Positions 33,526 through 63,987 of a stretch of 64,000 nucleotides of DNA are shown here, in pieces. A program made the position numbers and the translations under genes. The notes beneath the pieces were generated by a model. It was not told the origin of the DNA, ran no database searches, and saw nothing but the letters and a program-made list of their open reading frames with translations. The DNA comes from a virus, in IMG/VR virus record IMGVR_UViG_3300020469_000009, one strand, 5' to 3'. Every line of letters begins with the position of its first letter. Within the stretch, counting starts at the first letter, position 1.

Positions 33526-33900
33526 TTAATTCCCAAGTTTCTTTAGTAATACTGCAGTTTCCAGGCTAAATTTAACTTCAACCCAATCAGATTCATGAAG
33601 ATATGATAGATATTCAAATATTGTTTTAAACACTCTTTTTTCAGCATCATTGCAATGGAACATCATAAGTTCTTTGGCAGCATCTGTTTCAAATACATTA
33701 AAGAACAATATAACATGGTTGACTAATAAACGTATGTTTACATCTTTACCATTTACAATTTTTGTGGCTAATTTACGAGCATATTGTGATTTACGTAAGT
33801 CGTCTTGGAATTCTTTTTTGTCGGCAGCATAGACATTTCTATAATGCTTAAAAGCGTATTTCTCGAAATTTTTCTTATCCAGCTGCATCGATGTGACCAT
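33526..33900 (-). CDS. conserved T4-like hypothetical protein
   Basis: YAFKHY, EFQDDL, RLLVNHVILFFNVF. Confidence 0.75.
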   Translation of the reverse strand: MVTSMQLDKKNFEKYAFKHYRNVYAADKKEFQDDLRKSQYARKLATKIVNGKDVNIRLLVNHVILFFNVFETDAAKELMMFHCNDAEKRVFKTIFEYLSYLHESDWVEVKFSLETAVLLKKLGN

Positions 33901-34273
33901 ACTCAGACGGATTTAATTTTGTCTGTGGCTTGGTATCGACTTTGTCTTTCTTACCGCTTAATTTGACTTCACGGGTTTTTTCGGCATCAGCTTCATCATT
34001 GTCAAATTCTTTATTACCAATTGCTACGTTTGCACCAGGTACTTCACCTGGAACAGATGCTGGTGCTCCAGCCACTGCAGATGCGGGTGCATTAGCAGGT
34101 GCAGCTTCGCCATCAGATACTTCTTCCTCTTCTTCATCATCAGATTTTTCTAATGGGTTTTTACCATTAGAAATTTGTTCACCTTCATCCTCTTTAATTT
34201 GATTTAAGAGTTTTATGAAGTCGTCAATATCACCTTCAAATTCTTGTAGAATATCTTTTATGTTGATTGCCAT
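33875..34273 (-). CDS. acidic low-complexity protein
   Basis: E/D- and A/P-rich; TATAAATA 4 nt upstream of the ATG. Confidence 0.7.
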   Translation of the reverse strand: MAINIKDILQEFEGDIDDFIKLLNQIKEDEGEQISNGKNPLEKSDDEEEEEVSDGEAAPANAPASAVAGAPASVPGEVPGANVAIGNKEFDNDEADAEKTREVKLSGKKDKVDTKPQTKLNPSEYGHIDAAG

Positions 34274-34277
34274 AGGT

Positions 34278-34285
34278 TATTTATA
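34278..34285 (-). promoter_or_regulatory. T4-type late promoter (near-leaderless transcript)
   Basis: TATAAATA-ACCT-ATG. Confidence 0.7.
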
Positions 34286-34288
34286 CAA

Positions 34289-34319
34289 GAAGGGAAGAGA
34301 TGTTAAGTCTCTTCCCTTC
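34289..34319 (-). terminator. hairpin terminator after the YRG peptide gene
   Basis: 12-bp stem GAAGGGAAGAGA/TCTCTTCCCTTC. Confidence 0.7.
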
Positions 34320-34343
34320 CGTTCTTATACTGTTGCAATAAGC

Positions 34344-34466
34344 TTAAGCAGCAAGTTTTCCAGTAATTCCACGATAAGTGACTTCGTCACTTTTCTTCGC
34401 TTTAGTTACTGGCGGCTTGCTTTTTAAGGTTTTTGCATCGTATTTGATACCTCTGTAGCAGTACAT
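34344..34466 (-). CDS. 40-aa DUF4278-like (YRG) peptide
   Basis: MYCYRGIKY...TYRGITGKLAA; GGAGG RBS at 34471-34475. Confidence 0.75.
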   Translation of the reverse strand: MYCYRGIKYDAKTLKSKPPVTKAKKSDEVTYRGITGKLAA

Positions 34467-34526
34467 ATTACCTCCGGTTTTCGTATCGATTTCGTACATA
34501 CACCTTTCGGTGTACACCCTTCTCAA

Positions 34527-34663
34527 CGCGTTCCTTCAGCAAACTTTCGGTCTCGTTCCCTTCTGGATTTATTGACCCAAAAAGAAGGTACTTGCTTTCC
34601 CCTAAGAATAGGGAGGTTTTCAGGTTTTGCCTACTTCCGTCATATATTGCTATATGATGAACG
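34527..34663 (-). ncRNA. glutamine riboswitch, glnA class (glutamine-I), with enlarged P3
   Basis: CGUUCAUC-hairpin-GACGGAAGUAG...UGAAGGAACGCG consensus; lies between a late promoter and the DUF4278-like ORF. Confidence 0.8.
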
Positions 34664-34668
34664 TATAA

Positions 34669-34676
34669 TATTTATA
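34669..34676 (-). promoter_or_regulatory. T4-type late promoter driving the riboswitch transcript
   Basis: TATAAATA 5 nt upstream of the aptamer 5' end. Confidence 0.75.
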
Positions 34677-62939: not shown

Positions 62940-63274
62940 TCGTTTACTATGTAGTCTACATCTGACTCATTAGGAACTTCAAACAATTTGTCTGTGTCTT
63001 TATGTTCAGATTCTGTTATTGTATTCATCCATATTGATATAGTAGGTTTTACTATGTCTCTATAGTCCTGTTTTGGTGCTATAAAATCTAATATACCAGT
63101 TTTACCAGCCATTCTATAAGCTTGTCTTAACCTTCCATCATCAGAAAAATCCCAATCATCATGTAATAATCTATAATAATCAGCATTGTGGTGTGGAACT
63201 GTAAAATGATATGCTAACTCTTTAGCAACAGTGGTTTTGCCAGAACCTGATAACCCAAATATTAGTATTTTCAT
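62834..63274 (-). CDS. adenylylsulfate-kinase-like P-loop kinase
   Basis: GLSGSGKTT, NAD, DWDFS..GR.RQ. Confidence 0.7.
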   Translation of the reverse strand: MKILIFGLSGSGKTTVAKELAYHFTVPHHNADYYRLLHDDWDFSDDGRLRQAYRMAGKTGILDFIAPKQDYRDIVKPTISIWMNTITESEHKDTDKLFEVPNESDVDYIVNEWIDIKKLRKCLADSNPGIKDILLFLREQFPKLVK

Positions 63275-63987
63275 TTATCTTCTTTAGTAGTCTTAGTTTT
63301 TCTAGGTTTACGTTTCTTTTTAACTTTAAAATCAGGATTCTCTTTAAAAAATTCTTCTTTCTTTGCTTCTCTTACTTTGTAATGTTTACCTTCAACTTCA
63401 AATTCAGTGATACCTTCCTTTATTGCTTCAATTTCATGTTTGACTCTTAAAGTATGTGACCGTAAAGTAAAACCTGTTCTCCCTTTTTCAGCAGCAGTTT
63501 TTGGTTTTGCTTCTTCAATATCACCTAGTTTTTGGTCAGCATAAGCTCTTGCTTTTTGGCTGGCTTCATCACTAAATTCACCATGTAAAAACAAACTTTG
63601 TTCAGCTTGTTGTATAAGCTTTAAGTCTATCATATACTTTCTTTTTTCTTTCTTAATTCTTTGTACCATGTGAGAGAACAATATCTGAGTCACAAAAGCG
63701 AATCCATTATTAAATCTATCACCATCAAATCTGTAAGCATATTTTACTGCCGCCAGAATTGCATCTTGAATCATTTCATCTCTATAAGAATAATTTACAA
63801 AATTAGGTCTTAATGCTAATCTATTAGCCATTCTTATAATACAATCTCCAAGATACCTACTCATCTCAGGTCTGTCTTTATTTTTTTCCATTTGCTTCCT
63901 GCATTTACGTGAATATTCATCTAAAGCTTTAGTGAATTCTTTATTGTTTACGTAATGAGCAGAGTCTTTTGTTTGTCTCTTTGCCAT
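63271..63987 (-). CDS. gp55: late sigma factor gp55
   Basis: HYVNNKEF, RPNFVNYSYRDEMIQD, FAFVTQI, RIKKEK. Confidence 0.93.
   Translation of the reverse strand: MAKRQTKDSAHYVNNKEFTKALDEYSRKCRKQMEKNKDRPEMSRYLGDCIIRMANRLALRPNFVNYSYRDEMIQDAILAAVKYAYRFDGDRFNNGFAFVTQILFSHMVQRIKKEKRKYMIDLKLIQQAEQSLFLHGEFSDEASQKARAYADQKLGDIEEAKPKTAAEKGRTGFTLRSHTLRVKHEIEAIKEGITEFEVEGKHYKVREAKKEEFFKENPDFKVKKKRKPRKTKTTKEDK

Follow-up and report, generated by a model that had tools for sequence, protein, structure and literature searches.

A type-1 glutamine riboswitch with a structured domain nested in its P3 arm, carried by a virus and probably native to the SAR86 clade

We analysed a cassette of approximately 390 nt that lies between gp43 and the next gene on the minus strand (34289–34676) of a viral DNA stretch of 64,000 nt (IMG/VR record IMGVR_UViG_3300020469_000009; hereafter, the window). 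In our judgement, the RNA element of this cassette is very probably a true glutamine riboswitch of type 1 and represents a separate long-P3 subclass, native to the SAR86 clade, in which a domain nested in P3 is an integral accessory; the cassette itself is carried by a marine T4-like phage and probably served by a late promoter. Published descriptions present glutamine riboswitches as a device of cyanobacteria, built on a minimal aptamer of 60 nt. The version characterized here is larger and strictly conserved, and it is common both in SAR86, which is among the most abundant uncultured heterotrophs of the ocean, and in many uncultured T4-like phages.

Organization of the cassette

All of the minus-strand elements named in the original prediction were located in the cassette, from the promoter-like box through to the terminator (Table 1). 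With the box, aptamer, leader, ORF and terminator all present behind gp43, the unit is indeed self-contained, as had been claimed. A 60-aa ORF with a TTG start (34344–34526) is the reading frame of the YRG gene prolonged in the upstream direction, across the conserved leader RNA, and probably has no real start at that position.

The unit begins at a T4-type box, TATAAATA, which is situated on the gene strand and is identical in 10 of the 10 gp43-linked relatives carrying the cassette. These properties agree with the late promoter that had been predicted, in which the box would lie at about −10, and we infer that TATAAATA is used as a T4-type late promoter. The window contains eight copies of this sequence, all on the minus (gene) strand, compared with a shuffled expectation of 13.4, indicating no enrichment. 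A second TATAAATA at 34278–34285 ends 4 nt before the ATG of a 132-aa ORF (33875–34273); this ORF would be near-leaderless if that box is its promoter, or else its start codon is mis-assigned.

Table 1. Features of the riboswitch cassette, given as positions of the window
Feature	Position	Strand	Remarks
TATAAATA box	34669–34676	(-)	T4-type late-promoter consensus; 5 nt upstream of P1
Aptamer core strands	34527–34665	(-)	P1 CGUUC/GAACG, P2 hairpin, GACGGAAGUAGG, GAAGGAACGC
Glutamine-I riboswitch aptamer with P3 insert	34525–34665	(-)	RF01739 44.4 bits; own model R1 108.6 bits
P1 5′ strand CGUUC	34659–34663	(-)	Partner 34529–34533; invariant (n=74 distinct sequences)
P2 hairpin	34640–34657	(-)	Compensatory changes in 3/4 modelled pairs
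J2/3 CGGAAGUA	34632–34639	(-)	Ligand-contact G, linchpin G and outer E-loop 5′ strand; invariant
Helix a (extended P3 stem), 5′ strand	34624–34631	(-)	Partner 34538–34544; 5/6 modelled pairs compensatory
Nested domain core	34547–34621	(-)	R2 57.6 bits, E 2.8e-12; strands invariant
Hairpin 1, nested domain	34599–34614	(-)	4/6 pairs compensatory; 100% of cells paired
Inner E-loop	34554–34594	(-)	CAAGUA 34589–34594 with GAACG 34554–34558; carries hairpin 2
Hairpin 2, nested domain	34559–34588	(-)	Covariation at the hairpin base
GAAG outer E-loop 3′ strand, GAACG P1 3′ strand and linchpin C 34528	34528–34537	(-)	Invariant
Leader domain	34482–34528	(-)	Closing helix C34528-G-U34526 with A34484-C-G34482; covaries
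GAAA-capped leader hairpin	34497–34516	(-)	Compensatory in 5/5 pairs
Shine–Dalgarno GGAGG	34471–34475	(-)	AAAACC just before; kept in 44/46 distinct leaders
YRG mini-protein gene, 40 aa, two YRG	34347–34466 (with stop, 34344–34466)	(-)	DUF4278 23.1 bits, E 9.5e-5
Terminator hairpin	34289–34319	(-)	13 pairs, then UUGUAU; stems of relatives change sequence and stay paired

Identity of the aptamer

The reading of this RNA as a glnA/glutamine-I aptamer was confirmed by comparison with Rfam. Under permissive filters, RF01739 matched 34525–34665 over the full model (1–53) with 44.4 bits, compared with a gathering score of 35 (E 1.7e-8), and this match is not due to chance. Other Rfam families, including Downstream-peptide, manA and c-di-GMP, gave no match at E ≤ 10 with either the region or the insert alone. 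A default Rfam gathering scan of the whole window returned no match at all, indicating that the usual Rfam filters lose the element, and default Rfam annotation under-counts the glutamine riboswitch class.

The diagnostic features of RF01739 were then compared with the window and with 74 distinct sequences. P1 (CGUUC/GAACG) is unvarying, P2 carries three compensatory pairs, and the E-loop strands GGAAGUA and GAAGG required by RF01739 are both present in the window. The pocket pairs C1–G59 and G2–C58 of RF01739 correspond to C34663–G34529 and G34662–C34530, G22 corresponds to G34638, and the linchpin pair G23–C60 corresponds to G34637 and C34528; all of these nucleotides are invariant (the roles of the pocket, J2/3 and linchpin nucleotides are taken from PMC6698751 and PMC6212724). 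Since the pocket nucleotides and both partners of the linchpin pair are intact, glutamine is the expected ligand of the window RNA. In place of the short P3 hairpin of RF01739, 86 nt are inserted in the P3 loop relative to the model, and this insertion defines the variant.

Structure and conservation of the nested P3 domain

The P3 arm opens into GCAAAAC/GUUUGC and two hairpins. For its analysis, we used a covariance model of the aptamer with its insert (R1) and a model of the insert only (R2). In a model-guided alignment of 74 distinct sequences, which was thus fitted to the model, 97.1% of the pair cells were standard, compared with 83% after shuffling and 33–63% with slid partners, and compensatory changes were found in 14 of the 23 pairs. 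Covariation was observed in P2, helix a, hairpin 1 and the base of hairpin 2, while P1 never varies. A segment table obtained by plain pattern matching, independently of the model fit, agrees with the covariance alignment. The P3 junction with two hairpins that had been proposed is therefore both conserved and covarying in these 74 relatives, properties whose absence would have counted against the original prediction, and the nested domain is a real structured domain.

In contrast to the variable helices, approximately 30 junction nucleotides were unchanged across the 74 relatives. The core runs in the order G–A cap, AAAACCUC strand, hairpin 1, inner E-loop, hairpin 2 and GAGACCGA strand, and the invariant strands between the helices are GAAAACCUC, GG, AGCAAGUA and GAACGAGACCGA. 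Around hairpin 2, AAGUA and GAA mirror the GGAAGUA and GAAGG strands around P3, which is the pattern of an E-loop. Two kinds of paired change were detected at this place: a U inserted in AGC(U)AAGUA is accompanied by an A inserted in GAAC(A)GAG (7/7), and CGAGUA is accompanied by GAAA (3/3). Both are as expected if the first G of GAG pairs with the C of AGC to close an E-loop. On the other side of the domain, the GA located 3′ of the helix a 5′ strand and the GA preceding its 3′ strand are both invariant and can form a tandem sheared G–A cap, a type of pairing suggested by the sequence. The P3 arm would thus consist of a 7-bp helix, a tandem G–A cap and then a three-way junction with hairpins 1 and 2, hairpin 2 being mounted, as judged from sequence and covariation, on a second AGUA/GAA E-loop. 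The remaining junction strands are AAAACC and ACC; as the junction core is invariant, covariation cannot probe its internal pairing.

Several other arrangements were considered but not adopted. The junction strands do not show the pattern of a k-turn at the G–A cap, as there is no 3-nt bulge. An alternative P1, in which minimum-free-energy folds pair CGUUC with the GAACG of the insert, is not conserved, the relatives having GAAAG or GAACA. The pairing of CGG in the aptamer with CCG in the insert, proposed by RNAalifold, joins two invariant segments and crosses the covarying helix a, and a GGGU/ACCU pairing showed no covariation.

Hairpin 2 carries an optional extension, UUUUGGGUCAAUAAAUCCAG and close variants (34565–34583 in the window), which recurs in L033, L045, L081, L094 and L100. 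It is found on several otherwise different riboswitch backgrounds, like a sub-module moving between copies.

R2 recovered the insert of the window, the variant of which was absent from its seed (Table 1). In 151 SAR86-order genomes, R2 gave 44 strong matches, all inside long-form aptamers, and two marginal additional matches (E about 0.009). Neither these 151 genomes nor the viral loci contained the nested domain outside a glutamine aptamer. This speaks against the import of an independent aptamer, while a sensing role is compatible with it.

Distribution in viruses

Using the C-terminal part of the adjacent DNA polymerase as query, we obtained 17 IMG/VR contigs with 68–100% identity. Fifteen of these reach past the gp43 stop, of which 10 carry the cassette and five do not. 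In the five cassette-free contigs, gp43 runs straight into the next gene; in two of them (L011 and L012), the gp43 stop is directly followed by a remnant of the terminator, namely the 3′ half of its stem, indicating that the cassette was deleted there.

Pattern scans of IMG/VR yielded 62 contigs with the glnA core and a P3 of 65–95 nt, two of which proved to be tandem short aptamers, and 41 contigs with the insert core. Over both scans, the long form was present in approximately 77 contigs, and the insert belongs to one family that always lies inside a glutamine aptamer. In many T4-like contigs, the cassette occupies another site, adjoining a homologue of the window ORF at 63271–63987. In 50,697 GenBank phage records, neither the cassette nor the aptamer was matched by blastn with the window RNA (E ≤ 1), and the gp43 of the window is only approximately 43% identical to that of any deposited phage. 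Two T4-like viral contigs (L032, 3698–3808; L076, 2590–2700) contain tandem short glutamine aptamers and no long form; their gp43 is about 40% identical to that of the window.

Occurrence in the SAR86 clade

To cover prokaryotes, a pattern scan was performed on one genome per species, 185,579 species in total, and gave 65 loci. Approximately 50 of these belong to SAR86-cluster single-cell or metagenome genomes and a few to other marine Gammaproteobacteria; one is a contig of a Flavobacteriales bin that is identical to a viral contig, and the rest are chance matches in GC-rich coding DNA. No cyanobacterial locus was found among these species genomes. In the Flavobacteriales contig (L155, bin NAT55), both the riboswitch and the YRG gene match the IMG/VR viral contig L088 exactly, and the Flavobacteriales contig is probably phage DNA binned into a metagenome-assembled genome.

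R1 detected the long form in 44 of the 151 sampled SAR86-order genomes, and most of the other 53 genomes that it matched contain short canonical glutamine aptamers, often in tandem. The short forms (L162–L189) precede glutamine synthetase (glnA), a second GS-like gene and the amidotransferase domain of glutamate synthase (gltB), as well as a CP_ATPgrasp gene, a Gcw_chp gene and small ORFs. These short riboswitches of SAR86 contradict the literature, in which the class is restricted to cyanobacteria.

The domain had originally been taken as grafted into the aptamer by the phage. This does not agree with the SAR86-order genomes, 44 of which have the long arm, the leader and the peptide as native elements. 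The long-armed switch, its extra domain and the YRG protein thus appear to be native to SAR86 and borrowed by phages. Given this and the lack of a cyanobacterial match, the nitrogen status read by the switch is probably that of a SAR86-type heterotroph. The host of the window phage is probably also SAR86-like, as suggested by the sharing of the cassette, which in this way provides a sequence-based link between uncultured T4-like phages and a host.

The YRG mini-protein

The ORF downstream of the long form encoded a YRG peptide in all 80 complete ORFs (35–59 aa), and 35 of the 35 relatives tested matched DUF4278 (E < 0.01; best, 6e-10), in agreement with the DUF4278-type peptide predicted to follow the riboswitch. 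The window peptide itself scored 23.1 bits against Pfam DUF4278 (PF14105), the cutoff being 25.3. Forms with two YRG (35–41 aa) were detected in viral contigs only, and in these the middle repeat is absent. A tblastn search of GenBank phages with a three-YRG peptide as query gave no match. According to the literature, the GS-binding residues of IF17 are located in its C-terminal part, which is missing in short DUF4278 proteins. The terminal LAA had been proposed to act as an ssrA/ClpXP degron; this proposal was not supported, as LAA occurs in the window type only and the C-termini of the relatives vary (KIAA, KVAA, KYAA, KWVA, KHV, KWTN and others).

In 16 of approximately 50 SAR86 loci, an ammonium transporter gene directly adjoins the locus, in two arrangements, suggesting that the locus may be connected with ammonium uptake or with PII signalling. 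In L137 (3958–5545) and L150 (5880–7106), for example, the long riboswitch and YRG gene adjoin the ammonium transporter, once right after glnK–amtB. The findings as a whole also point to a nitrogen-control role of DUF4278 mini-proteins outside cyanobacteria.

Leader and proposed mode of switching

The closing helix of the leader domain (34528–34526 with 34484–34482), of which the ACG strand lies seven nt upstream of GGAGG, occurs in the relatives as CGU/ACG, CUA/UAG and CAU/AUG, i.e. in three pair-type combinations. This covariation supports a 3-bp helix between the linchpin C with its two neighbours and a segment lying shortly ahead of the ribosome-binding site. The ribosome-binding site of the window lies in an A-rich, apparently open stretch, and a pyrimidine-rich anti-Shine–Dalgarno segment is absent from the leader itself. 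In simple SAR86 leaders with short aptamers, P1 is immediately followed by CAUCU, which can pair with an AGAUG at the ribosome-binding site, in agreement with the model proposed for gifB. On the basis of this arrangement and of the gifB switch model, in which the linchpin couples ligand to translation (PMC6212724), we take the window leader to follow the same design in modified form. As in the gifB model, the binding of glutamine would pull C34528 into the linchpin pair, this pairing would melt the closing helix, and translation would rise when glutamine is high.

Role of the nested domain

P3 is the part of the aptamer that moves most on ligand binding, and its loop has been engineered in crystal constructs. 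Because P3 is the mobile arm, a domain placed there will move with it, and the nested domain would most likely set the geometry, folding or response curve of this arm. Two SAR86 leaders of YRG genes (L175 and L182) are informative in this respect, as they contain two tandem short aptamers without the domain, indicating that the domain is dispensable for running the YRG gene. The nested domain may do a job similar to that of the second aptamer in these leaders.

It is possible, but unlikely, that the domain acts as another sensor, recognizing either a small molecule or a protein, in which case the RNA would be a natural nested two-input switch. The approximately 30 invariant junction nucleotides around variable, covarying helices are a typical signature of a binding pocket, the insert is matched by no Rfam family, and the domain sits on the arm that moves upon glutamine binding. 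However, the domain never stands alone in the 151 SAR86-order genomes or the viral loci, no candidate ligand is known, and the YRG leaders of L175 and L182, which are closely related in the leader part, run on two tandem ordinary aptamers. We likewise regard as doubtful that a metabolite, or the basic YRG peptide itself, is bound at a further site formed by the junction. If this were so, the RNA would be the first natural riboswitch with one sensor placed within a mobile helix of a second one, an arrangement that SAR86 uses and its phages have copied.

That the domain is instead part of the expression platform seems quite improbable to us. Its invariant ACCUC(C/U) would pair with GGAGG(U) in one ligand state, and the swing of P3 would toggle this pairing. 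The two segments are conserved in most relatives, ACCUCC and GGAGGU are perfectly complementary over 6 nt in the window, and the leader has no anti-Shine–Dalgarno segment of its own. On the other hand, both segments are invariant and hence show no covariation, the U and C of the ACCUC motif also close hairpin 1, and minimum-free-energy folds leave ACCUC and GGAGG unpaired to each other. Moreover, a closely related leader and ribosome-binding site work with the insert-less tandem aptamers of L175 and L182.

It is very unlikely that the nested domain derives from the glutamine aptamer itself as a degenerate copy, serving as the equivalent of a tandem arrangement with a steeper response. The topology of the domain is the same as that of the aptamer (UC-ending strand, hairpin, AAGUA-ending purine strand, hairpin, GAA, return strand and C), and tandem short aptamers replace the domain in the two SAR86 YRG leaders mentioned above. 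This likeness does not extend to the sequence, as the insert alone matched neither RF01739 nor RF01704 at E ≤ 10, the equivalent of P1 has at most three Watson–Crick pairs, and the positions corresponding to those of glutamine contact are mismatched. Finally, a neutral, functionless expansion of a loop tolerant enough to accept foreign sequence in crystal constructs is hardly credible, given that SAR86 species share the approximately 30 invariant nucleotides and the compensatory changes with several phage lineages, the neighbouring proteins of which are only 30–50% identical to those of the window.

The reading that we prefer remains that of an accessory domain acting on the mobile P3 arm. With its 139 nt and a clean design for deletion, the RNA is a small and convenient system in which to study how the function of a riboswitch is tuned or extended by a peripheral domain that sits on a moving helix.

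Comparison with known systems

Glutamine riboswitches in front of DUF4278 genes are established in cyanobacteria, and the class has been called exclusive to them except for unassigned metagenome hits. A 2025 paper briefly notes RF01739 matches in SAR86 bins. At least 11–13 GOS sequences with this insert, leader and YRG ORF are contained in the glnA alignment of Weinberg et al. 2010 (PMC2864571, Additional file 4), where, in the part of the alignment concerned, the insert is treated as variable P3 sequence and the organism was not known at the time; the main text of that paper holds no description of the insert. In the searchable literature, a scope that does not include Ames and Breaker (2011) and Ren et al. 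(2015), no text describing the nested domain was found.

Among the closest known systems is the gifB/IF17 leader of Synechocystis sp. PCC 6803 (Klaehn et al. 2018, PMC6212724), which shares P1, P2, the E-loop, the pocket and the linchpin with the window RNA and likewise precedes a DUF4278-type gene. In both, a helix using the nucleotide after P1 couples ligand to translation, as read for the window by analogy. The two differ in P3, which is a 94-nt arm with a conserved junction in the window and a 3-bp hairpin in gifB, and in the leader between aptamer and ribosome-binding site, where the window has a conserved 55-nt domain different from that of gifB. They also differ in the product, as the 40-aa window peptide is without the IF7-like C-terminal part of IF17, and in the organisms, which are SAR86-type Gammaproteobacteria and their phages here and cyanobacteria in the case of gifB.

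Among phages, glnA-type riboswitches are carried by Melnitz (OM43) and by pelagimyophages (Buchholz et al. 2022, PMC9004378), which are likewise T4-like marine phages of streamlined heterotrophs. Those switches are linked to a tmRNA gene and no P3 domain has been described for them, whereas that of the window precedes a YRG gene. Tandem glutamine riboswitches, which some SAR86 YRG genes use, resemble the window RNA in having two structured modules per leader; in the window, however, the second module is nested in P3 and is unrecognisable as a glutamine aptamer.
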